Shown here one piece after another: positions 26,284 to 38,392 of a DNA stretch of 64,000 bases. Location of the stretch: contig JAKFCY010000002.1 of assembly GCA_036676395.1 (NCBI GenBank), positions 2,464,001-2,528,000 on the forward strand, given 5' to 3'. Every line of letters starts with the position of its first letter. The stretch's first letter is position 1. A program made the position numbers and the translations under genes. The stretch is from Bdellovibrio sp. (lineage in GTDB: Bacteria > Bdellovibrionota > Bdellovibrionia > Bdellovibrionales > Bdellovibrionaceae). The notes under the pieces were generated by a model that saw nothing but the letters and a program-made list of their open reading frames with translations, was not told the DNA's origin and did not search any database.

Positions 26284-27204
26284 TTAGCCAGCTACAGTGA
26301 CCTTGTTGCGGCCGTTTTGTTTACTTGAGTATAAAGCTTTGTCTGCGCGATCATAGACTGACTCCCAAGTGTCGATGCTATTGAATTGCGCCACACCAAT
26401 TGAGATTGTTACAGGAACTTTACGACCATCAAAAATAAATTCATGAGCTTCTACAGTTTGACGAATACGTTCAGCCACTTCTGCAGCGGTTTTGATGTTC
26501 GTAGCTTGCAATAAAGTTACAAACTCTTCTCCGCCGAAACGCGCAAAGTAATCATTGGCGCGAACCAGGCGCGCTTGCATAAGCTTACCTAATTCACGTA
26601 ATACATAATCCCCGCCTGGATGGCCGAAATTATCATTCACCTTTTTGAAAAAATCGATATCAAAAGTAATAACTGATAAAGGTTCACCTAAGTTTTTCGC
26701 ACGCTGAATAATCTCGGGGCCTTTTTCTAATAATGCGCCTTTAGAGTAAGCTCCGGTAAGAGCATCTTTTTGCGCTTTTTCTAAAGTCCTTTGATTGGCA
26801 ATAATTTCAATACTGCCTTTTTCTAAGAATTTCAAAATTACATTACCAGCTTTGATTCTGTCGCTGTTATGTAATTTTCTTTGCACCATCGGAACTGCAA
26901 TTTGATCGTTTACCGAAGTTTTATTTGTTGAATTCATATCCATGATCACAACATCAAAACCGGCCTGCATAATTTTTGCGTGCGAGCGGCTTAAAGAAGT
27001 ATCGTTGATATAGATGTCACAATCCGGAGAACGACCGATTGTCATGTCAGGTTTTGTGACCAACCACTGTTTTCCAACAGCTTCAGTCGGACCAACTAAA
27101 CACACAAGAGCCGGAGGCGCATCATCAGCTTGTTTAAGCGCACCCCTGAAAGTGTCGCTCAAAGCTCCCATCACCGTTGCTTCTTGTTCGTTATTTTTCG
27201 ACAT
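26284..27204 (-). CDS. dgcB: FHA-GGDEF diguanylate cyclase (DgcB-like)
   Basis: FHA (IGR, SRSHA, NSTN), GGEEF, RxxD I-site (RAND), N-terminal tail; ATG 27204 with GAGGTG SD. Confidence 0.8.
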   Translation of the reverse strand: MSKNNEQEATVMGALSDTFRGALKQADDAPPALVCLVGPTEAVGKQWLVTKPDMTIGRSPDCDIYINDTSLSRSHAKIMQAGFDVVIMDMNSTNKTSVNDQIAVPMVQRKLHNSDRIKAGNVILKFLEKGSIEIIANQRTLEKAQKDALTGAYSKGALLEKGPEIIQRAKNLGEPLSVITFDIDFFKKVNDNFGHPGGDYVLRELGKLMQARLVRANDYFARFGGEEFVTLLQATNIKTAAEVAERIRQTVEAHEFIFDGRKVPVTISIGVAQFNSIDTWESVYDRADKALYSSKQNGRNKVTVAG

Positions 27205-27311
27205 GTTGTAACTCACCTCTATTAAGAAAGTATGCTCGAGAAAATATCATTGATCAATCAAGGACTAGACTTAAGAAAGGCTAAGTTTACCTCTAGAAAC
27301 GAGACAAAGTA

Positions 27312-28432: not shown

Positions 28433-29749
28433 TTAGTCTACTTTTTTAAGTGCTGGTTTATTCTCTTCTTGTAATTCTAAGTTAGCCATCGCTAATCGCA
28501 GCGCTCGTGTAGTACGTTTGAACGACTCTTGATTAGTATCAATAACCTTATTCAATTCTACACACTTCTGACGGTAGCTTTCAACTTCCAGTTGAACTTG
28601 ATCTAATTTACGACGTACATCAAGGATTTGTTCGTCTTTAGTCTTAACTAACGCATTCTTTTCTGCACGAATTAACTCTAGACGATTTTCTAGTTCGCGC
28701 TCACGCACGCGAATTTTCTTTAAATCAAATTTCATTCTTGACTCAAGCTCTTCGATTTTCATCGACGCTTTGACGATCTCGGCATCTTTACGCATGATCT
28801 GGCTTTTTAAAATGCCATTTTCATTTTTGAATGATTGCTCTAATGAGTCACGATCAGCTTTAAATTCATGTAACTGACCCGTTAATAAATCTGCGCGCTC
28901 TTTTACGATTTCAGACGCAGCGATTAATTCTTCATTTTGTGAACGTAATTTTTCATTGTCTTTTTCTAAATCTAAAATCTTTTCTTGCGCGATACGTAAA
29001 TTTTCTGACTGCGCTAAGTTTGAATCTGAAGATCCCCACGCCGCATAACCACTCGAAAAGGCATTGCCGCGCATTTGTCCGACAGAAACTTTGACTTTAT
29101 CACCGTAATCTTCAGACGCACGCTGAGAAAACCCTGCAACAGCAACTGTCTTTTCACCATCACCGCTATCAACATTACCAAAATCTTCCATCGCTGGCGG
29201 CATATCAGATTGAATTTCTGTTGCTGCTGTTTTTTCATCTGCACCCAAACTTGAATAATCGGAACGTTGCGGGTCGGCACCTGAACCAAATAAACTTGGT
29301 TCGCTACCTGGTAAAGCCGTCGGAGGCTGTGGTACAACTTCAGGTGCTGCAGCTGCCGCAATTGCATCCTCATTATCAAATAAGCTGACTTCTTTTTTTG
29401 GAGTTTCAGGAGTTTGAAATTGTGCGAAAGCATTCGCATCAGGCTCAGCTGGTACTTCGAAGATATCGCCAACGATGCCTTCTAAAGAATCTTCATTATC
29501 TAAATTAATATTAATTGCGTCAGGAGAAAACAACCCTGAAATCGAGCCATCTTCAAGTTGAATAATATTTTCTTCGCCATCTTCTGATGCCGAAATATTT
29601 TTTAATAAATCAGGATCTAAACCTAAATCATTGCCGAAAGAATCATCCGAGATGGCTTTATCGACATCTTTTAAATCTTCCATCAACGATGATAGAATAT
29701 CATCCGCTGTTTGCGATTTTTCTTGTTTCGGTTTTTGGCTTTTGCTCAT
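28433..29749 (-). CDS. Acidic disordered N-terminus plus long C-terminal coiled-coil protein
   Basis: D/E/P-rich first half, heptad-rich second half; sigma28-like promoter upstream. Confidence 0.7.
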   Translation of the reverse strand: MSKSQKPKQEKSQTADDILSSLMEDLKDVDKAISDDSFGNDLGLDPDLLKNISASEDGEENIIQLEDGSISGLFSPDAININLDNEDSLEGIVGDIFEVPAEPDANAFAQFQTPETPKKEVSLFDNEDAIAAAAAPEVVPQPPTALPGSEPSLFGSGADPQRSDYSSLGADEKTAATEIQSDMPPAMEDFGNVDSGDGEKTVAVAGFSQRASEDYGDKVKVSVGQMRGNAFSSGYAAWGSSDSNLAQSENLRIAQEKILDLEKDNEKLRSQNEELIAASEIVKERADLLTGQLHEFKADRDSLEQSFKNENGILKSQIMRKDAEIVKASMKIEELESRMKFDLKKIRVRERELENRLELIRAEKNALVKTKDEQILDVRRKLDQVQLEVESYRQKCVELNKVIDTNQESFKRTTRALRLAMANLELQEENKPALKKVD

Positions 29750-29780
29750 CTTGACCTAACCCGTTAAATTACCTAAGTAT

Positions 29781-29807
29781 TTATCGGTCTAAAGACGAGC
29801 GAACTAG
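29781..29807 (-). promoter_or_regulatory. sigma28-type promoter
   Basis: Minus strand CTAG-N15-ACCGATAA. Confidence 0.5.
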
Positions 29808-29925
29808 AGTGATCTTGTATCAAAATGTTAAATCAGCAAAAATCGCTGAAGAGTGTCTTAGAATGAGATTATTTTAGACTGAAGTCGTGAAATATCAAAC
29901 AGGTCCTGCTAGCTGCCGACTGAGC

Positions 29926-29949
29926 TCTGCTCCATCAACTTGAAGCAGA
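29926..29949. promoter_or_regulatory. Palindromic box TGCTCCA-N6-TGAAGCA
   Basis: TCTGCTCCA TCAACT TGAAGCAGA, one mismatch; same geometry as 7587, 30820 and 34596. Confidence 0.45.
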
Positions 29950-30028
29950 ACCTACAAAGCAAGGCTTAACTAAACAAAACACATGGCGATAAGTAATTAC
30001 ATTCAAATAAAGACACAGCGTCTTCACA

Positions 30029-30736
30029 CTAAGGGGAGGTTACGAAAGTAATCTCCCTTTTTTTCATTTCATTTTGTAAAACAAAATATTTAACTTCATT
30101 GTATTCTTTCTTAGACATTCTATTAAATTCGCCAGAAATAATATAAGCATTAAAGTATCTGACACTATCTGAAGTTTTAATGTTTGGGGTAGCGTGAAGA
30201 ACAAATCTGTATAAAACTTCGTGTAAAATCGCATGGGCCTGATCAGCTTTAGTCATCAATAGCCACAAATCAGTTGAGATAAGGTATCGCTTATCTTTTA
30301 CTGTGATAGGTTCTGTTTGTATAACCAATTGTTTTAGTTCTGAAGAATACGGAATAAAAGAAATGCCTGTATCCGGCACCGGCAACAAAACAATTCCCGA
30401 AACAAAGTTTGCTTCGGCTTCAAAGTCTTCAACAAATCCAGTTAGCTCAGCAGCAAGCTCAAGATCATGTTTTTTTACAGAGTCTAAAAGTTGAACCGCG
30501 TAATCGACTGCCGAAGCTGGCTCAACGAAATTATCTGCCATCGAAAGAGGCTTCATTTGATAGCGAATGTCTGCCTCATAAGTATCATAGAAAGCTCCTG
30601 CATAGCCCTGGCGGCCATAACAGTGGCCTGATTCGGGCTTTAGGCAAACGATGATGTTTCCACCATTACCAACACGGCCTATTGCTGCAAGATCTAATGA
30701 AAATAAAAGCACTAAAATAAATAGTTTTTTAAACAT
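30029..30736 (-). CDS. Secreted hypothetical protein with VGNGG motif and HExxY degenerate zincin-like motif
   Basis: Signal peptide, GRVGNGG immediately after it, AILHEVLYR. Confidence 0.7.
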   Translation of the reverse strand: MFKKLFILVLLFSLDLAAIGRVGNGGNIIVCLKPESGHCYGRQGYAGAFYDTYEADIRYQMKPLSMADNFVEPASAVDYAVQLLDSVKKHDLELAAELTGFVEDFEAEANFVSGIVLLPVPDTGISFIPYSSELKQLVIQTEPITVKDKRYLISTDLWLLMTKADQAHAILHEVLYRFVLHATPNIKTSDSVRYFNAYIISGEFNRMSKKEYNEVKYFVLQNEMKKREITFVTSP

Positions 30737-30819
30737 GCTTTATTTACTAATACTTTTTTTTGACAATCAAACATTAACTAAAAAATTTTAAGCTTTATTT
30801 TCTAGAACATTTACTCGCT

Positions 30820-30839
30820 TGCTCCACTTTTAAGGAGCG
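30820..30839. promoter_or_regulatory. Palindromic box TGCTCCA-N6-AGGAGCG in the divergent region next to the TIGR02147 gene
   Basis: GCTCC(30821-30825)-N8-GGAGC(30834-30838). Confidence 0.5.
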
Positions 30840-30892
30840 CCTGCATTTCCTTTTGACAGCGCACAGACAATATCAATACCCTTAAGTTATCA

Positions 30893-31648
30893 ATGAAGAA
30901 TAATCTCCTAATTAAAATAGTTAATGATCACTTTCAAAAGCTTTCTAACAAAAACAAACGTTTTAGCAAACGTTCGTTTGCCTTAAAGATCGGTCTTAGC
31001 TCTGGGGCTTTAACCGACTTTCTTTCTGGCAAACGTGGTATTTCCAAAAAGAAAGCTCAAGAAGTTCTTGAAAAAATCGGCTACTCTGAAAAAGAACAAC
31101 TGCAGATTTTAAATTATAATCCACTACTTACCGAGTCGAAACCACGCGCATTCAAAAAAATAGAGCACGATATCTTTGATGTGCTTTTATCTTGGGAGCA
31201 CTTAGCTATTCTATCCTTAACTAAAACTAAAAATTTTAATTCATCAGCGCACTGGATTGCTAAAAAACTTTCATTAGAGATCGAAGTGGTTGAAAAAGCC
31301 TTACTTAACCTTGAAAATCACAACTTAATCAAACGCGACAATGAAACAATCACCATTAATAACGAAGACGTCGAAACTTTTGATAATATTCCTTCAGCTG
31401 CCATCAAAAAATCGCATCTGCAAGATCTTGAAATTCATAAAAGGAATTTAGCCGAAATACCCGTCGAACTACGCGATATGTCTTCAATCACGTTATCTTT
31501 AGATGTGCAGCAAATGGAACTATTAAGATCAGCGATTCGTCTTTTTCAGGAACAAGTCGCTGAAATAGCAGAAACCAGCAATGCCACAGAGGTCTATAAG
31601 ATGTCGATCTATCTAGGCCCCTTAAGTAACTTTAGTGTTTCAACTTGA
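30893..31648 (+). CDS. TIGR02147/DUF4423 family HTH protein
   Basis: N.RFSKRSFALKIGLSSGALTDFLSGKR HTH; WEHLAILSL, AIKKSH, RDMSSIT, EVYKMSIYLGPL. Confidence 0.85.
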   Translation: MKNNLLIKIVNDHFQKLSNKNKRFSKRSFALKIGLSSGALTDFLSGKRGISKKKAQEVLEKIGYSEKEQLQILNYNPLLTESKPRAFKKIEHDIFDVLLSWEHLAILSLTKTKNFNSSAHWIAKKLSLEIEVVEKALLNLENHNLIKRDNETITINNEDVETFDNIPSAAIKKSHLQDLEIHKRNLAEIPVELRDMSSITLSLDVQQMELLRSAIRLFQEQVAEIAETSNATEVYKMSIYLGPLSNFSVST

Positions 31649-31716
31649 GAATGGTTTTTAATAAATCCCACCTTAAGGCCATCCTGCCTTAAACTGAATT
31701 CGCGGGGATATTATAC

Positions 31717-32367
31717 ATGAAATCAATTTTAGCAATTGCTATTGCTTCTCTTTTTTCAATTCAAAGCCCGGCTCAAAGTGGCGGAAGCGGCCGGATAAAC
31801 CACGAGACTATAATTCACCTGGCTGTAAAATCAAAATGTAAGGCCTCGGTCTTAAGCGTTAGATGCGCAGGTGGAATCAAATTCGACGAACTGAAATTAA
31901 CTGGGTGGAAAAAAGATGCTGTCCTTGCAAATTATTATGAATACACCGGTGCTGTTGAGCCTGATTTATTTAATTCACATCACGATAAAAGAAATGCTTT
32001 TTTAAAAACTGCCTGCGTAAGTGATCACTATGAAGTCGACAATTGGCGCGAAATTTTCACCTGCGTTGAAGATGGCAAAAAACAAGAAATCAAATTTGAA
32101 CTCCACCCAAAAGATGGCGGTTACAGCCTGGTTTGCGATGCCGAAGGTGGCAAAGCTTGGCTTAAGCTGATTTACCCAAAGGCCACTTGGGAAGAGGCCC
32201 CGAAGACACCACATTATTACACGTTCTATGGTTTTGCAGAAGATAAGCGTAAAGAGCTCGGTGAATTTATACGACAAAGTGTTGTAAATCCGCCAGCTGG
32301 TTGCCGACGACTTGATTGTCCGCTAAATGTACCTCTGCCGGATGGTTGCGAACGAGAGAAGCCGTAA
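31717..32367 (+). CDS. Secreted Cys-containing hypothetical protein
   Basis: GGGGA SD, signal peptide, 216-aa ORF. Confidence 0.6.
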   Translation: MKSILAIAIASLFSIQSPAQSGGSGRINHETIIHLAVKSKCKASVLSVRCAGGIKFDELKLTGWKKDAVLANYYEYTGAVEPDLFNSHHDKRNAFLKTACVSDHYEVDNWREIFTCVEDGKKQEIKFELHPKDGGYSLVCDAEGGKAWLKLIYPKATWEEAPKTPHYYTFYGFAEDKRKELGEFIRQSVVNPPAGCRRLDCPLNVPLPDGCEREKP

Positions 32368-32392
32368 ATATGGCTTCTCTGTCACAAGAAAA

Positions 32393-33316
32393 TTAAACAG
32401 TGATCATTTTAACAAGCTCAGCATTCATCTTAGCGTAAGATGTTTTATCAATCTTAGCTAAAGCTTTAAGACTGAAATCCTGGATAGTTTGCGAAGACAT
32501 AACTGTTCCCGCAAGAGTTGCTTGTTTTAACTCTGTCCAAGTTGGTTTTTGATCTTGGCCAGCAGGACGTAAACTTGCTAAGTAACCAAAAAAGCCACCC
32601 GCGAAACTGTCGCCAGCTCCTGTAGGGTCCACAACTTTTTCAACAGGTAAAGCTGGACATTGAAAGAAGCCATGAGTTTTTGAATAAACTGTTGAGCCGT
32701 ACTCACCACGTTTAACAACAACGTACTCAGGACCAAGTTCAGCAACTTTTTTGATCGCAACAATAGCGTTATCAACTTGAGTTAACATTTTCGCTTCTGT
32801 TTCATTAACGAAAACGATATCAACTTTTTTAATCACTTCAATTAAATCAGACTGTTTAGAGTTGATCCAAAAGTTCATTGAATCCATTCCTACGAAAACC
32901 GGATTTTGGATTTGCGCTAAAACTTTTAATTGTAAAACCGGATCGATATTAGCTAAGAAAACAAAGCGCGTGCCTTTGTATTTCGCAGGTAATTCGGGAT
33001 TAAAATCAGCAAAAACGTTTAATTCTGTTTTTAATGTAACGGCTTCATTTAAATTATTTTCGTAAGTGCCTTCCCAGTGAAAAGTCTTACCTGGAACAAC
33101 TTGCATACCGTCTAAATCAACGCCACGTGAATTTAAAATTTCACGATCAGCATCTGAATAATCAGAACCAACAACGCCAACAACTTGAACTTTAGCAAAT
33201 AAACTAGACGAAACTGAAAAGTAATTCGCTGAACCGCCTAAAGATCTTTCTGCTTTTCCTGTTGGTGTTTTTACTGAATCATAGGCTAGGCTGCCCACTA
33301 CTAAAACTTCTGACAT
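32393..33316 (-). CDS. PfkB-family carbohydrate kinase
   Basis: GSLAYD, GGSANY, VDPTGAGDSFAGG; ATG 33316 with GGAGGA SD. Confidence 0.92.
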   Translation of the reverse strand: MSEVLVVGSLAYDSVKTPTGKAERSLGGSANYFSVSSSLFAKVQVVGVVGSDYSDADREILNSRGVDLDGMQVVPGKTFHWEGTYENNLNEAVTLKTELNVFADFNPELPAKYKGTRFVFLANIDPVLQLKVLAQIQNPVFVGMDSMNFWINSKQSDLIEVIKKVDIVFVNETEAKMLTQVDNAIVAIKKVAELGPEYVVVKRGEYGSTVYSKTHGFFQCPALPVEKVVDPTGAGDSFAGGFFGYLASLRPAGQDQKPTWTELKQATLAGTVMSSQTIQDFSLKALAKIDKTSYAKMNAELVKMITV

Positions 33317-34457
33317 TCGTTCCTCCGATTTTTGAATTTGAAGTATCCATTCTTTCAGGACGTTCAATATTTTTTGTAGTTAATTGACCACAAGCTGCGA
33401 AAATATCGCGACCCATAGTACGGCGTAATAACGTCTGCGCTCCAAGTTTTTGTGTCTCAGCGTGAAAAGCTTGAACAGCTTCATCACTTGGACGTTCAAA
33501 GTCAGAACCCGGATGTTCATTAAATGGAATAAGATTAATTTTGCATGGAACATCTCGCAAAAGTTTAACTAATTGGCGCGCGTGATCGATTTGATCAGTC
33601 ACACCTTTTAATAAAACGTACTCCATCGTGATTTTCTCACCCGTTGCACGGTAATAACGTTTACATTCTTCTAAAAGATCTTTTAACGGATATTTTTTGT
33701 TAATTGGCATAACTTGCGAACGCACTTCATCACTATAAGCATTTAAACTTACTGCTAAACGCACTTTCGCTTCAGCCACTTTATACATTTCAGGAATTAA
33801 ACCTGATGTTGATACCGTAATTTTTTTACGAGATAAATTCACACCCCATGGCGAATGAATCACTTCGATAGATTTAAACACGTTATCTGAATTATCTAAT
33901 GGTTCGCCCATGCCCATGAATACGATATTTGATAATTTGCGGCCTTGGCCTTCGCGCGCTAGTGAATCTTGCACCACCATAAATTGACCAACGATTTCGT
34001 CAGCCGTTAAGCGACGTTTTAAATTTTGTTTGCCGGTAAAACAAAATTTGCAGGCCATGTTACAGCCAATTTCTGAAGATACACATAAAGTTAAACGGTC
34101 GTCTGAAGGAATCACAACCGCTTCGATTGAATTGCCTTGGCCCACATCAAATAAGAATTTTTGCGTGCCATCAACACTGATTAAATGTTTGATTACTGGA
34201 GGTAAGTTAAAAGAAATTAAGTGTTTTAATTCTGCACGTAAATCTTTTGATAGATTTAACATTTGATCAAAATCAGTTACGCGCGATTCGTAAACCCATT
34301 TAAATATCTGCTGGGCACGAAATTTTTCTTTGCCGTATTTTTTTAGAAAAGCTTCAAGATCTGGAAGCGTAAAAGAATAAAAGTTAGTTAATACAGGTGT
34401 AACAACAGTTGTGTTGTCCACAGCGTTAGCTGCTTGCGAAGTTTCAGATAGCGTCAT
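33279..34457 (-). CDS. rlmN: 23S rRNA/tRNA m2A methyltransferase RlmN
   Basis: CNMACKFC, MGMGEP, INLIPFN, DIFAACGQL. Confidence 0.96.
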   Translation of the reverse strand: MTLSETSQAANAVDNTTVVTPVLTNFYSFTLPDLEAFLKKYGKEKFRAQQIFKWVYESRVTDFDQMLNLSKDLRAELKHLISFNLPPVIKHLISVDGTQKFLFDVGQGNSIEAVVIPSDDRLTLCVSSEIGCNMACKFCFTGKQNLKRRLTADEIVGQFMVVQDSLAREGQGRKLSNIVFMGMGEPLDNSDNVFKSIEVIHSPWGVNLSRKKITVSTSGLIPEMYKVAEAKVRLAVSLNAYSDEVRSQVMPINKKYPLKDLLEECKRYYRATGEKITMEYVLLKGVTDQIDHARQLVKLLRDVPCKINLIPFNEHPGSDFERPSDEAVQAFHAETQKLGAQTLLRRTMGRDIFAACGQLTTKNIERPERMDTSNSKIGGTNVRSFSSGQPSL

Positions 34458-34595
34458 TGGCCGTCCTTTTTGTGACTTATTACAGTCGATTAATTTTGAG
34501 AACCTAGAGATAGTCGAACAAGACGTAAAAGTCTATAACTAGCTGCTTTTAAACCTAAATCCACGGATTTTGCCTGTAAAAATTTTGCTTGCCTT

Positions 34596-34625
34596 TGTTC
34601 CAAATGCTTGGAACACTTTGTTCCA
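34596..34625. promoter_or_regulatory. Palindromic box TGTTCCA-N6-TGGAACA plus a third half-site
   Basis: TGTTCCA(34596-34602) AATGCT TGGAACA(34609-34615); TGTTCCA again at 34619-34625. Confidence 0.6.
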
Positions 34626-34710
34626 AAATCTGTAGACTTAGACCATAAACTTGTTTAATTCTAGTTTCAGGCAGCAAGATACTCTTTCTGCCTAAACCAA
34701 GGGGATTTAA

Positions 34711-35331
34711 ATGAAAACACTACTTTTAGCTCTTATCTTCAACATGGCAGCTCTACTTTTCTTCTCAACCGCTTTCGCACAGGCTGGCCAAATCATTGCC
34801 GGCGGTAACGGCTGCCCCAACGGCGATATCCAAATTGAACAAGACGAATTCGATCCTGAATCACTGGTTGTAAAATACTCTGATCAAATGCAAGCAGGCG
34901 CTGATTCTTCTAAACGTTTAGAAAGAAAAAGCTGCAATCTAAGAATTCCGTTAGATATCCCTAAAGGCTTACGCCTAACAGTTGAAGTGGCGACAATTGG
35001 TTTTGCTTCTGTTGACCGCGACCGTGTGTCAGCTAGCCAAGAATTATTCTTAGCCGGTGATCAAGGCATCGTTGATGAACAACAACTTGAATCAGGTTAT
35101 GTGTTATTAGGAATTCCTGCTGGCCAAGTGGTGCAAACGGCTTGTGGCCAATCAACGATTTTAGCTCTTAACTTAAACGGCACTGTGATTAAAAAAGCAC
35201 AAAGCTTAACTGATTCATTCTTATCGTTTGAAAAAACAGTTTTGCGTTTTCACTGGGAGCAATGTGACCTTCCAGATGATGGAAATGACGACGGAACAAT
35301 CGGTTTAAGCGGTTTACAAATTGCACAGTAA
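34711..35331 (+). CDS. Secreted DUF4360-like protein
   Basis: Signal peptide; GNGCP..RKSCNLRIP..P.G..T.CG...W..C pattern. Confidence 0.7.
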   Translation: MKTLLLALIFNMAALLFFSTAFAQAGQIIAGGNGCPNGDIQIEQDEFDPESLVVKYSDQMQAGADSSKRLERKSCNLRIPLDIPKGLRLTVEVATIGFASVDRDRVSASQELFLAGDQGIVDEQQLESGYVLLGIPAGQVVQTACGQSTILALNLNGTVIKKAQSLTDSFLSFEKTVLRFHWEQCDLPDDGNDDGTIGLSGLQIAQ

Positions 35332-35380
35332 GCATTAGTTACAGCCTTCGGGCGCAAAATGTAACCAGAAGGGAGCGGAT

Positions 35381-36202
35381 ATGACTGAACAATTAGCCAT
35401 ACAAGATAAAATTCGCTCTCACTTTGCTAACCTTCAAAGAAAAAATCCAGCCTTCTCGCTTCGAGCCTTCGCTTTAAAATTGGACATCAGCCCAAGTGCT
35501 TTAAGCGAGATCATGGCTGGTAAACGTAAAGTTTCTAAAAAAATGGCGGTTAAACTTTTAGACCGTATGTATCTTGACCCTAAAGAAGCCGAAGCCATCA
35601 AACTTTTATTCGATGGCAAAGGTAACGGTCATGACCAAGAAGCCGATTCTGAAAAAGGTCTCTTACAAAAATACAAAAAAAATATCAATTACCTAAAATT
35701 AAGCTCAGACCAATTTAACATGATCAGCGAATGGCAACATTTCGCTTTGTTGTCGTTAATGGAGACCGTGAACTTTGTTTCTGATATTCCGTGGATGGCA
35801 AAACGTTTAGCTTTATCAGTGACTGATGTGCAAAAAACTCTGACTCGCCTGACAGATCTAAATTTAGTTTCTAGAAAATATAACCGCTACGCACCAACGA
35901 ACGAACCATTAATCACATCCGACGATGTAGCTAACCAAGCCGTGCGCAAATCGCATTATGAAGATTTAAAGCTAGCTGAAAAAGTTTTAGACCACTGCCC
36001 TGTTGAATTACGTGATTTCACGGCTGTTACTGTAGCTGTTGATAAAAGTAAAATTCCTGAAGCTAAAAAGATGATTCGTGAATTTCAGGATTCGCTGTCA
36101 CAATTTTTAGAAGATGGCAAAAAAGATGAAGTTTATAAATTAACGTTTTACATGTACCCGCTCTCGACCTCTGAAACACCAGGAGAAACCAATGAGAACT
36201 AA
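35381..36202 (+). CDS. TIGR02147/DUF4423 family HTH protein
   Basis: KNPAFSLRAFALKLDISPSALSEIMAGKR; WQHFALLSL, AVRKSH, RDFTAVT, EVYKLTFYMYPL. Confidence 0.88.
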   Translation: MTEQLAIQDKIRSHFANLQRKNPAFSLRAFALKLDISPSALSEIMAGKRKVSKKMAVKLLDRMYLDPKEAEAIKLLFDGKGNGHDQEADSEKGLLQKYKKNINYLKLSSDQFNMISEWQHFALLSLMETVNFVSDIPWMAKRLALSVTDVQKTLTRLTDLNLVSRKYNRYAPTNEPLITSDDVANQAVRKSHYEDLKLAEKVLDHCPVELRDFTAVTVAVDKSKIPEAKKMIREFQDSLSQFLEDGKKDEVYKLTFYMYPLSTSETPGETNEN

Positions 36203-37364
36203 CCACCTACACCTACTTGTAATCGGCCTATGTTTTAGCGTATCCGCAAACGCGCTAAATCTACTTAAAGCCTTAGAAGTTAAACTTCCGCAAGTGATTC
36301 AAGTCGGCAACAGAACCGTAACGATTCCTGGAAGCATTTCTTTAGTTAAGCTTTTAGATGGCCGCTACGCGGTTGAAAACAAGTTCAGCACCGAAGGCCA
36401 CAAGGTCGGCAACGGTGGCGATTATATTCGTTCGGTATTTATCCAGATGGGTGAAAACGTAAATGAGTATTTAGAAACAACTGAAGCTGGAAGCCAAATT
36501 GTAACAACTCATAATTTAGACCTAGTCAGTCTTAAGACAACTTTAACAACTGAAAGTATTGTTTTAACAAATGATATCTTAATCGATAACACAGGTTCAG
36601 TAGTTGATGCGATCGGTGTTCCAGGGTTAATTATTTTAAACAGTGCTAGCTGGTTAGATCATTTCGAAAAAGAAAGAAATGTTTATTACCTGGTATTGCA
36701 CGAAATGTTACGCAGCAGTGCTGTGGATGATGATGATTTCGTAATTTCTAAAAATATCTTTAATTTTCCGAGCCAATTTAAAATGTCGACGCGTTTATTA
36801 CCGTTAATTCCGATGTTAGAAGCTGATTCAATCACAGAACTTGTGACTTTAGATAAAATCACAGTCTTAGGCACAGGTTGTTCAAACAAGTCACCTGCTT
36901 ACACTGAACTTGATTTAACTAAAAATGTTATTGATATCACATTGAAAAGTTTTATCACGGTAAACTCTGATGCACGTAAAATGGATTACAAATCTTGTAA
37001 TGTAACGGTTCCGTTAAAATTACCTGCTGGAAAACGTTTAACGATTTCATTAATCGATGTCTCTGGCGAAGTTAGACCACAAGCTGCTGATTTAAAATCA
37101 ACAAGTACATTAAAATTTGAAGCATTCTTAGCTGGTAGCACGGGCAAGCTTAATGCAAAAGTCGTGACTTTAGGTTCTGAAGCGCGCACGGTTTTATTTA
37201 GAAAAACTGATGCGATCACAACAGGCTGTGGAACTTCTGAAATTTTACGTTTAAATGTGAATAATGCACTATCTTCAAAAGGCACAGCCGCAGAAGGTTT
37301 AACCAACCAATCCCAAGTGAAAAAGATTTCAGTTTATTTAAATCTTGAAGACTGTAAGAACTAA
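36192..37364 (+). CDS. Secreted fusion of a VGNGG/HE domain and a C-terminal DUF4360-like domain
   Basis: Signal peptide; KVGNGGD; LVLHEMLR; GTGC..KSCNVTVP..P.G..TGCG..C. Confidence 0.7.
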   Translation: MRTNHLHLLVIGLCFSVSANALNLLKALEVKLPQVIQVGNRTVTIPGSISLVKLLDGRYAVENKFSTEGHKVGNGGDYIRSVFIQMGENVNEYLETTEAGSQIVTTHNLDLVSLKTTLTTESIVLTNDILIDNTGSVVDAIGVPGLIILNSASWLDHFEKERNVYYLVLHEMLRSSAVDDDDFVISKNIFNFPSQFKMSTRLLPLIPMLEADSITELVTLDKITVLGTGCSNKSPAYTELDLTKNVIDITLKSFITVNSDARKMDYKSCNVTVPLKLPAGKRLTISLIDVSGEVRPQAADLKSTSTLKFEAFLAGSTGKLNAKVVTLGSEARTVLFRKTDAITTGCGTSEILRLNVNNALSSKGTAAEGLTNQSQVKKISVYLNLEDCKN

Positions 37365-38392
37365 GCCTGAATTGTGGCTTTAAGTTCTGAAAGATCACAA
37401 GGCACGCACCCGATTTTACCAACCACAATGCCTGCAGCGTAATTCGCTAATACGCAGGCTTGGGCTAACGGTAAACCAGAAGCTACACCTAATGCTAACG
37501 CAGCGATTACGGTATCGCCTGCTCCAGTCACATCAAATACTTTTTTAGCAAACGTAGGCACTTGCACGACATCTTTATCGCTTGTAAAAATCGACATGCC
37601 TTCTTTACCTTGAGTTAACACAACATCACGCGCACCCGTCATTTTTTGTAAGGCGCGGCCAACAGTGTAAACACGCTCATTAAAATTTTCGATGTCTTCT
37701 TCGTGAATCTTAGTTAAAGCCAGAGCTTCGTTGTAATTGGGTTTGATTAAATCTACACCTTTGTAAAATTCAGCGAATTTTGTTTGGTGGGGATCAACCA
37801 TTAAGTATTTTCCAGATTTTTTAGCTAACGCGATGATCTTTTCAACTAAACCTACAGAAAAAATTCCTTTAGCGTAATCTTCTAAAACCACAACATCCAT
37901 TGACGGGATTAAATCTTGAACACGCTGTAAGATTTTGCTTTCAGTTTCTGCGGGTAAATTTCTGCGAACTTCGTAATCGACGCGAACGAGGTGATGGTGC
38001 CCTGTCATCACGCGAGTTTTGCGTGTGGTTGGGCGTTTTTCATCAACGATTAAGTGCTCTGATGAAACTTTTGATTTAGTTAATAACTCTTTTAAGATCT
38101 CGGCACCGGTATCTGCACCAACAACTGAAACTAAGTTTACATTTCCTGACAAACTTACCACATTTTGGGCCACGTTGGCTGCTAAACCTAAACGTTTATC
38201 TTCGCCGTCGACCTCTAAAACCGGTACCGGAGCTTCAGGGCTAATGCGTTTAACTGCCCCCATAATGTACTCGTCCACTCCCACATCGCCGATTAAAAGA
38301 ATCTTTTTGCTCGAAAAAGCAGAAATCTTTTCTAGGATATTCTTTTTAACTGTACCGTCGACGTTGAAATGTATAATAGAGTTTGTATGCAT
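37361..38392 (-). CDS. D-glycero-D-manno-heptose-7-phosphate kinase (RfaE/HldE kinase domain, stand-alone)
   Basis: RISPEAPVPV, AANVA, DYAKG, FDVTGAGDTV; start uncertain. Confidence 0.9.
   Translation of the reverse strand: MHTNSIIHFNVDGTVKKNILEKISAFSSKKILLIGDVGVDEYIMGAVKRISPEAPVPVLEVDGEDKRLGLAANVAQNVVSLSGNVNLVSVVGADTGAEILKELLTKSKVSSEHLIVDEKRPTTRKTRVMTGHHHLVRVDYEVRRNLPAETESKILQRVQDLIPSMDVVVLEDYAKGIFSVGLVEKIIALAKKSGKYLMVDPHQTKFAEFYKGVDLIKPNYNEALALTKIHEEDIENFNERVYTVGRALQKMTGARDVVLTQGKEGMSIFTSDKDVVQVPTFAKKVFDVTGAGDTVIAALALGVASGLPLAQACVLANYAAGIVVGKIGCVPCDLSELKATIQA

Follow-up and report, generated by a model that had tools for sequence, protein, structure and literature searches.

Paralogous TIGR02147/DUF4423 regulators of Bdellovibrio, their predicted variable-core operators and the exported proteins encoded beside them

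We analysed a 64,000-nucleotide (nt) stretch of DNA from Bdellovibrio sp. (the window; assembly GCA_036676395.1, contig JAKFCY010000002.1, positions 2,464,001 to 2,528,000, or G000:C2:2464001-2528000 in our coordinates; genome of 3.4 Mb with ~39% GC), which carries two loci where a helix-turn-helix (HTH) gene of the TIGR02147/DUF4423 family, here called T1 and T2, lies among genes for exported proteins. Our analysis makes it likely that T1 and T2 are paralogues acting as homodimeric transcription factors, and that each would bind its own operator by its own promoter and autoregulate a cassette with exported proteins. What we computed in support of this proposal is family membership, the enrichment, position, conservation and covariation of the operators, the linkage of the partner genes, and a dimer model. 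The genes of the two loci are as follows.

30893-31648, plus strand: T1, TIGR02147/DUF4423 regulator of 251 amino acids (aa), helix-3 sequence SSGALTD (Pfam and NCBIfam models).
30029-30736, minus strand: V1, exported GNGG...HE protein of 235 aa with VGNGG and HEVLY, divergent from T1 (partner-family profile).
31717-32367, plus strand: exported Cys-rich protein of 216 aa, 68 nt 3' of T1 (open reading frame, ORF; no family match in the Pfam/NCBIfam scan).
34711-35331, plus strand: D1, exported DUF4360 protein of 206 aa, leading the locus-2 operon, 49 nt 5' of T2 (Pfam).
35381-36202, plus strand: T2, TIGR02147/DUF4423 regulator of 273 aa, helix-3 sequence SPSALSE (Pfam and NCBIfam models, AlphaFold2 (AF2) model).
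36192-37364, plus strand: V2, exported GNGG...HE domain (VGNGG, HEMLR) with a C-terminal DUF4360 domain (Pfam, partner-family profile).

A first-pass annotation, made from the sequence without database searches, had called TIGR02147-like HTH genes at 30893 and 35381, and both exceed the cut-offs of Pfam DUF4423 (T1, E 8e-35 and 120.5 bits; T2, E 7.1e-42 and 143.5 bits; cut-off 30) and of NCBIfam TIGR02147, also named Fsuc_second (94.4 and 133.2 bits; curated cut-off 50). The helix strings SSGALTD and SPSALSE were found in T1 and T2 just as that annotation had written them. With the HTH_3 model T2 scored above the cut-off of 23 (25.7 bits) and T1 below it (18 bits). The two proteins share ~34-36% identity and belong to a large set of paralogues, with 15 genes over the curated TIGR02147 cut-off in this genome; the family model matched 12 to 31 times in each of the eight genomes that we searched. 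The neighbours had been described as secreted, which agrees with signal-peptide-like N-termini in V1, D1, V2 and the 31717-32367 product (hydrophobicity heuristic and reading by eye), and the VGNGG and HE strings are indeed present in V1 and V2. DUF4360 was matched by D1 (48.1 bits, E 1.6e-12) and by residues 218-376 of V2 (55.2 bits, E 1e-14; cut-off 27). V2 starts 11 nt before the end of T2, and D1 also lies upstream of the T2 orthologues in the related genomes G018, G016 and G004, with a fragment in G017.

The upstream regions of the family share a palindromic frame. In our census, this genome and 30 relatives contributed 99 full-length, non-redundant TIGR02147 genes; gene starts were refined by a purpose-built hidden Markov model (HMM), inverted repeats were sought in the 150 nt before each start, and 97 of the genes were used in comparisons with 973 upstream regions of other genes of this genome. 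Perfect repeats with 7-nt arms, of which shuffled sequences predict about one, preceded 23/99 genes at spacer 3, 26/99 at spacer 5 and 18/99 at spacer 7, and 10/99, 10/99 and 7/99 at the even spacers 4, 6 and 8. Set against the control regions, 8-nt arms with a 3-nt spacer were ~10-fold enriched (16/97 vs 16/973), and the same arms with a 4-nt spacer gave 4/97 vs 37/973. The enrichment of N6-spaced palindromes that the first-pass annotation would have expected near these genes was not found as it had been worded (arm 7 and spacer 6, 10/97 vs 78/973); it is spacer 3 that is enriched instead. The enriched frame, TTnnnnCA-ctt-TGnnnnAA, is an odd 8-3-8 palindrome whose 4-nt core is specific to the paralogue, as in TTGCTCCActtTGGAGCAA, TTGGTACActtTGTACCAA, TTGCCCCActtTGGGGCAA, TCGGGACActaTGTCCCGA (from a paralogue in the same genome) and GGATCAaaaTGATCC. 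Sites that have a C[AG]NNNTG centre and in which 7 or more of the 8 pairs match precede 33/97 family genes vs 26/973 control genes, one of the 26 being the T2 operator itself, 5' of D1. Their centre stands 50-53 nt before the ATG in 24/33.

We write H for the half-site TTnnnnCA (TTGGAACA at locus 2) and use H' for the reverse complement. In 18/34 operators a further H' (at least 7/8) lies within 40 nt upstream, compared with 1, 1 and 0 in three internal controls, and it is mostly separated from the palindrome by 3-7 nt. On this basis the family operator is predicted to consist of three half-sites, H'-N(3-7)-H-N3-H', and the element at locus 2 reads H'-N4-H-N3-H'. Because an auxiliary H' is common among the canonical operators, the palindrome first noticed at locus 2 is best read as the auxiliary H' plus the left canonical arm, and its supposed extra half-site as the canonical right arm. 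The proposal that both loci share one palindrome geometry therefore stands for the auxiliary dyad, which has the same layout at the loci L030 and L039, and gives way to the 8-3-8 frame for the canonical operator. At L030 and L039, which are from the same genus and have an SSGAL helix, GCTCC-N6-GGAGC is followed by a decayed third half-site, as at T1, and a paralogue in genome G031 has the three-half-site layout built from GATCC. At L015 and L016, two paralogues of this genome (5' of C3:532323 and C2:2078204), long AT-rich palindromes, TTAAATAATCAAA-N9-TTTGATTATTTAA and AAAGTTATACT-ttt-AGTATAACTTT, replace the canonical frame, so the TIGR02147 family would have more than one operator class.

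The elements predicted at the two loci are listed below.

30820-30839, plus strand: T1 box, TGCTCCA-N6-AGGAGCG (sequence).
30820-30850, plus strand: predicted T1 operator region, with auxiliary TGCTCCAC (30820-27), N4, AAGGAGCG (30832-39), centre cct (30840-42) and a degenerate third half-site GCATTTCC (30843-50) (sequence, conservation).
30853-30882, plus strand: putative T1 promoter, with TTGACA (30853-58) and TACCCT (30877-82) set 18 nt apart and 10 nt left to the ATG, hence a near-zero leader (sequence).
29928-29947, strand not assigned: second T1-type box, TGCTCCA-N6-TGAAGCA, equal to TGCTCCAT-caac-TTGAAGCA, an H'-N4-H dyad with one core mismatch (sequence, conservation).
34596-34626, plus strand: predicted T2 operator, with auxiliary TGTTCCAA (34596-603), N4, TTGGAACA (34608-15), ctt and TGTTCCAA (34619-26) (sequence, conservation).

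All four boxes that had been reported from the sequence were recovered where they had been placed. At locus 1 the operator centre cct lies 52 nt before the ATG of T1, which is the canonical position. The second box of this locus is found 892 nt upstream of the first, between the 3' end of V1 and the start of the gene at 28433-29749(-), and next to it is a minus-strand sigma-70-like site at 29898-29871 (10/12) that faces this gene. At locus 2, TGTTCCA-N6-TGGAACA occupies 34596-34615 and an additional TGTTCCAA follows at 34619-34626, 23 nt after the first, and the canonical 8-3-8 palindrome spans 34608-34626.

These boxes are rare in the genome. GCTCC-N8-GGAGC occurs once, 5' of T1; GTTCC-N8-GGAAC occurs three times, with its only intergenic copy at locus 2; and GGAAC-N5-GTTCC occurs once, at locus 2. 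The loose pattern of the first-pass annotation has 15 genome matches; 4 fall between genes, three of them at the two loci. GNTCC-N8-GGANC has 11 matches, 4 of them intergenic (at T1, at T2, at C2:1072180-1072623 and on a small contig), and three of these four stand directly 5' of TIGR02147-type genes; all of these counts are partly circular, as the patterns were taken from the same sites, and they rely on a crude gene map in which ~94% of the genome is ORF. The gene at C2:1072180-1072623(-), like that at C2:1114225-1114617(+), is short and codes only for the N-terminal HTH part of the family, and GGTCC-N8-GGATC lies 46 nt before its start.

Since the patterns came from the sites on which they were counted, conservation provides stronger and independent support. 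All boxes form conserved islands within intergenic DNA that has otherwise diverged in G018 and G016. In the syntenic region of G016, where the T2 orthologue has 83% aa identity and the genes have ~74-82% DNA identity, the spacer between rlmN and D1 has diverged, yet TTGGAACACTTTGTTCCAAAAT is unchanged; 22 nt are invariant, with the left half-site displaced by 1 nt. The T1 box of G016 retains TGCTCCA and GAGCA, and the core of the T2 operator is also found 5' of the operon of the G004 orthologue.

Several other readings of the boxes were considered and rejected. The reading of TTGGAACActttGTTCC as a sigma-54 site was dropped because the GG/GC spacing, judged by eye, is off the consensus. The segment 34596-34615, which looked terminator-like in a scan, lies between divergent gene starts and its apparent T-run is the next half-site, and neither strand of the 29928 box shows a T-run, so that neither element was kept as an intrinsic terminator. 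A search of 29500-37600 against Rfam returned no family, only one chance-level snoRNA row (E 0.58) below the gathering threshold.

The position of the operators relative to the putative promoters is similarly constant. The operator centre lies ~52 nt before the ATG and the operator itself ~5 nt upstream of the -35/-10 pair. Among the 26 genes with sites clustered near -52, 19 have TTG at the expected -35 place and 11 have a TAnnnT hexamer ending 4-12 nt before the ATG (vs 223/981 control genes), and a Shine-Dalgarno (SD)-like motif was found for 1/26 vs 410/981 control genes with crude starts. The TTTTGAC of the T1 promoter is kept in G018 and G016. Taken together, this layout suggests mRNAs with no leader or almost none, and an operator that adjoins the -35 box from upstream without covering it. 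T2 is unlike this pattern, as it has an SD (GGGAGCGG) and lies behind D1, which is consistent with co-transcription of D1 and T2 from the spacer that bears the operator. Inspection of this spacer revealed no convincing -35/-10 pair for the D1 operon.

We then asked which part of the regulator the operator core follows. Across 32 operator-protein pairs, evaluated by permutation, half-site distance correlated with the distance between XRE helix-3 sequences (r 0.30, p 0.0005), which is the covariation of half-site and helix residues that the first-pass annotation had proposed as a check; there was no correlation with the alpha-3 segment of the winged helix (r 0.004, p 0.47). The partial correlation between operator and helix 3, given the rest of the protein, was 0.32 (p 0.0005). 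SSG helices (T1, L037, L039 and also L030) go with GGAGC, and 3/3 SSG-helix proteins tallied have GGAGC half-sites; SPS/SPG helices (T2, L023, L048, L061) go with GGAAC, the SAG helix (L025) with GGATC and the VPS helix (L074, L112) with GGTAC. As far as sequence comparison can tell, the residues that open XRE helix 3 thus appear to read the 4-nt core.

Searched with the family profile, residues 26-90 resembled HigA/XRE chains (E 6.7e-8, HigA 2icp being the best) and residues 99-177 resembled ArsR/CzrA (E 8e-5 to 1.7e-4), which places an N-terminal XRE HTH and, probably, a central winged helix in T2. The AF2 model of T2 has a predicted local distance difference test (pLDDT) of 88.2 and a predicted template-modelling score (pTM) of 0.65. 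Foldseek searches of this model against the PDB gave no match at E <= 0.001; weak matches were to OhrR/SlyA of the MarR type (E ~0.02) and to 1lmb and 1lli (prob 1.00, 84 columns, E 0.05-0.09). Dimerisation of T2 is supported by a homodimer model with an ipSAE (an interface score derived from predicted aligned errors) of 0.74 vs 0.00 for the best control and an interface at residues 185-264, for which three runs share at least 93% of contacts and partner pLDDT is at least 75. In the calibration of this tool its mark was reached by 20/30 proteins solved as pairs and by 1/23 solved as single chains.

Most family genes also have a predicted exported partner. A co-directional ORF follows 82/99 family genes, often with a 4-nt overlap, and 81 have a signal-peptide-like start. 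The partner set that we assembled held 81 proteins: V1, another protein encoded nearby in the same genome, and 79 products of downstream genes with a length of 150 aa or more. An iterative profile search joined 53/81 of them, V1 and V2 included, into one family. The kinship of V1 and V2 surfaced only through this iterative search among partner proteins: when compared directly by BLASTP and phmmer, the two shared just the VGNGG 9-mer, which was not significant (E 0.28). In an alignment of 50 proteins, the Ala that ends the signal peptide, two Gly of GNGG and a His-Glu pair on a later helix are near-invariant. GNGG directly follows the signal peptide in most members, and in V2 and a few others an insert of ~50 residues comes first. 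An HMM of the N-terminal part found 8 strong matches in the own genome (E <= 9.4e-18), all at most 157 nt from a TIGR02147 gene, and three more that were weak (E >= 6.6e-4) and distant.

Neither Pfam nor NCBIfam has a model that covers the GNGG...HE domain of V1 and V2, nor does Pfam for 50 partner proteins. The C-terminal parts differ widely between members. Among these 50, Pfam recognised only C-terminal accessory domains, namely DUF4360 in 4, FGE-sulfatase (formylglycine-generating-enzyme-like) in 1 and PhageMetallopep in 1 (E 2.7e-4). The FGE-sulfatase fusion to GNGG...HE is the L025 partner (G031:C3, 29-1468(-); E 5.5e-43). The AF2 model of V1 (pLDDT 87.5, pTM 0.85) had no Foldseek match in the PDB at E <= 0.001. 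With VIA-align its best hit was deuterolysin 1eb6 (Z 4.5, root-mean-square deviation 3.7 over 108 residues), followed by 1g12 (4.4) and 2x3a (4.3); the top rows are mostly zincin peptidases, all with Z < 5 and hence below the trust level of the tool. The best match of the partner profile to a PDB sequence was projannalysin (E 0.11), and the nearest ESM Atlas clusters consist of Bdellovibrionota proteins without names. We take these weak fold and profile matches as a lead, not a result, that the partner family may be zincin-derived. The partners resemble minigluzincins (selecase, jannalysin) and M35 aspzincins (deuterolysin) in having an HE motif on a long helix after a small sheet. They differ from zincins in that V1 (HEVLY) and V2 (HEMLR) lack HExxH and with it the second zinc-binding His, and all matches remain below trust level; V1 and V2 are thus probably, judging from their sequences, unable to bind zinc in the classical way. 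Some partner paralogues of the same genome retain HExxH (HEVGH, HEFGH). We know of no zincin with a counterpart to the near-invariant GNGG after the signal peptide. Giant exported proteins of 1683-2395 aa also adjoin several TIGR02147 genes (C2:639160-645261, 1287086-1292137, 1297329-1304516 and 1912936-1917987), and an N-terminal motif, TTYQA[KR]II[KQ]P[DN]G, is common to three of these four proteins; the giant proteins may represent a second class of regulated cargo.

Based on these results, we propose a model in which the regulator, with a predicted XRE HTH at its N-terminus, a MarR/ArsR-like winged helix in the middle and a dimerisation region at its C-terminus, would recognise its own operator as a dimer through XRE helix 3. 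A promoter just downstream of the operator would then drive the regulator and the exported protein or proteins of one unit. At locus 2 the operator would head an operon D1-T2-V2. At locus 1 the third half-site would have decayed, leaving the conserved dyad H'-N4-H with its second copy 892 nt upstream beside a promoter-like site. Operator binding, the domain that contacts DNA, the sign of regulation and the control of V1 are what we infer here beyond the computed results. As the site abuts the -35 box without covering it and a third half-site is present, we lean towards activation or a mixed on/off circuit, as with the controller (C) proteins of restriction-modification systems or lambda cI at PRM, over simple repression. 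The earlier idea of paralogue-specific dimeric transcription factors that each control a cassette of secreted proteins is upheld insofar as operators track helix 3, the dimer model passes its controls and exported partners are found family-wide, and falls short in that only locus 2 has a clear operon behind its operator.

A number of observations weigh against the model. The canonical site precedes only about a third of the family (33/97), the others having different palindromes or none that we recognised, and several other paralogues of the same genome have unrelated palindromes. The control regions come from a single genome with crude ORF-based starts. The orientation of the central triplet is fixed (CTT in 17/34), which a simple symmetric dimer leaves unexplained. 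The operator also correlates with the whole protein (r 0.215, p 0.004), and because the sequences are kin the p-values overstate their independence. At locus 1, T1 is without a canonical third half-site, the 29928 box is outside the canonical frame relative to any start codon, and the stretch between the T1 box and the conserved promoter-like segment of V1 has a 30-nt insertion in the window compared with G018 and G016 (30737-30892). Finally, the partner HMM was seeded partly with members from the own genome, and just 1 of its 8 strong matches is independent of the seed.

The fixed triplet is also among the features that could speak for an RNA element. If the palindromes acted as RNA, H'/H and H/downstream H' would form mutually exclusive hairpins, as an attenuator or a stabilising leader; three half-sites permit such alternative pairings, the triplet has a constant orientation relative to the gene, and G-T is the commonest mismatch (15/58, plus 1 T-G), with the inner pair often being G-T. 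However, the -35/-10-like hexamers follow the palindrome and stop 4-12 nt short of the ATG, and transcription from that promoter would therefore leave the palindrome out. In addition, 12 A-A and 11 C-A mismatches are unable to pair, the hairpin loops would have just 3 nt, and a hairpin does not predict that the core tracks the recognition helix of the neighbouring protein. We therefore regard a role as RNA as very unlikely. It is less likely still that another regulator, common to the loci, binds the boxes, or that they reflect chance or promoter shape, with a different role for the TIGR02147 proteins, even though two thirds of the family genes lack a canonical site and AT-rich promoters yield weak palindromes (26/973 controls pass the canonical test). 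A shared regulator would need one motif, and what we see is a core that differs per paralogue within a fixed frame and position. Moreover, the two arms vary in concert, and the exact boxes, which are unique or nearly so in the genome, are kept across species inside diverged spacers.

The tight, overlapping two-gene arrangement, an operator position that suggests autoregulation and the HigA-like N-terminal HTH (E 6.7e-8; TIGR02607 E 8e-6, below its cut-off) raise the question of a toxin-antitoxin or immunity-like module, in which the HTH protein would neutralise its partner and repress the operon. Yet partners with signal-peptide-like starts (81/99) would leave the cytoplasm, the regulators have 250-270 aa with a predicted extra winged helix and dimerisation region, the regulator gene comes first, and the weak fold matches of the partners are to zincin peptidases, not to HigB-type RNases. 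No toxin family was matched among the partners (Pfam and NCBIfam for V1 and V2, Pfam for 50 partners), and we consider this explanation the least probable of those weighed here.

The proposed autoregulation by a dimeric HTH protein at a palindromic operator is a mechanism of a known kind; here it would occur in an undescribed family, with three half-sites, a variable-core code and an obligate exported partner. C proteins of restriction-modification systems (C.AhdI, C.Esp1396I, C.BclI) are single-domain XRE dimers of ~80 aa that bind adjacent palindromes 5' of their own gene; their mRNAs lack a leader, and through distal and proximal sites they both activate and repress. T1 and T2 are like them in the XRE-type HTH, the palindromes just 5' of their own gene and the near-leaderless layout, with a weak profile match to C.BclI (E 0.013), and unlike them in their size (251/273 aa), the predicted winged helix and dimerisation region, the three half-sites and the exported partners. 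Genes nearby encode exported proteins, rlmN and sugar kinases, and no restriction-modification genes are close by. With lambda cI/434 at OR/PRM, the family has in common a lambda-repressor-like HTH, paralogue-specific operators in a shared frame and sites that abut the own -35 box; it differs by the absence of a phage context and of an S24 peptidase domain and by the 8-3-8 palindrome with an extra half-site and a fixed asymmetric centre. HigA antitoxins are the closest N-terminal sequence matches and autoregulate via palindromes in their own promoter, but T1 and T2 are larger, contain a second domain of DNA-binding type and have an exported partner rather than a toxin. The central domain matches ArsR/CzrA and, weakly, MarR folds, and MarR/ArsR proteins are dimers on palindromes; here, in contrast, the winged-helix segment has no covariation with the operator, and fusion to an XRE HTH is foreign to the MarR architecture.

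The first-pass annotation knew of no established function or binding site for the family, and our full-text literature searches by accession, by Fsuc_second and by full name likewise found no published function of TIGR02147/DUF4423. In a proteome table (PMC12546842), the DUF4423 protein Bd3700 appears among those up-regulated when the cells grow inside prey. Among the matches listed for Bdellovibrio, XRE, palindrome and autoregulation there was general XRE work only, and those listed for DUF4360 were fungal, algal or CASP (Critical Assessment of Structure Prediction) papers with nothing on the family. For TIGR02147/DUF4423, a large paralogous family, our analysis offers a testable DNA-binding role with an operator predicted per paralogue, a promoter layout that leaves hardly any leader, and an obligate family of exported partners that Pfam does not model and that may be zincin-derived. 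If confirmed, this would explain how many lineage-specific secreted proteins of predatory bacteria are wired to dedicated switches and would supply naturally orthogonal regulator-operator pairs. More tentatively, and with doubts that outweigh our confidence, one may picture the whole family as mutually orthogonal regulators and operators, in which the frame is constant and two to three helix-3 residues set the 4-nt core. Each pair would be wired to one exported zincin-like protein, which would let predators of the Bdellovibrio group switch individual members of a large secreted arsenal independently; positive autoregulation might make such pairs bistable switches and lead to cell-to-cell variety of the secretome.

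The remaining observations concern the surroundings of the two regulators. The gene at 31717-32367 is missing from the syntenic G016 locus and has one paralogue elsewhere (C2:1581541-1582194); by its distribution it looks like a recent insertion outside the conserved module. The ORF at 26284-27216(-) encodes, according to its translation only, an FHA-like N-terminal part and a GGEEF motif, so that its product is probably a diguanylate cyclase. Conservation in G018 and G016 extends to the segment 29984-30028, where a 22-codon ORF begins (ATG at 29984). A strong plus-strand terminator-like hairpin with a T-run (30031-30060, 13 pairs) overlaps the 3' coding end of V1, with no plus-strand gene called upstream of it; 29984-30064 could be a small plus-strand transcript antisense to the end of V1.

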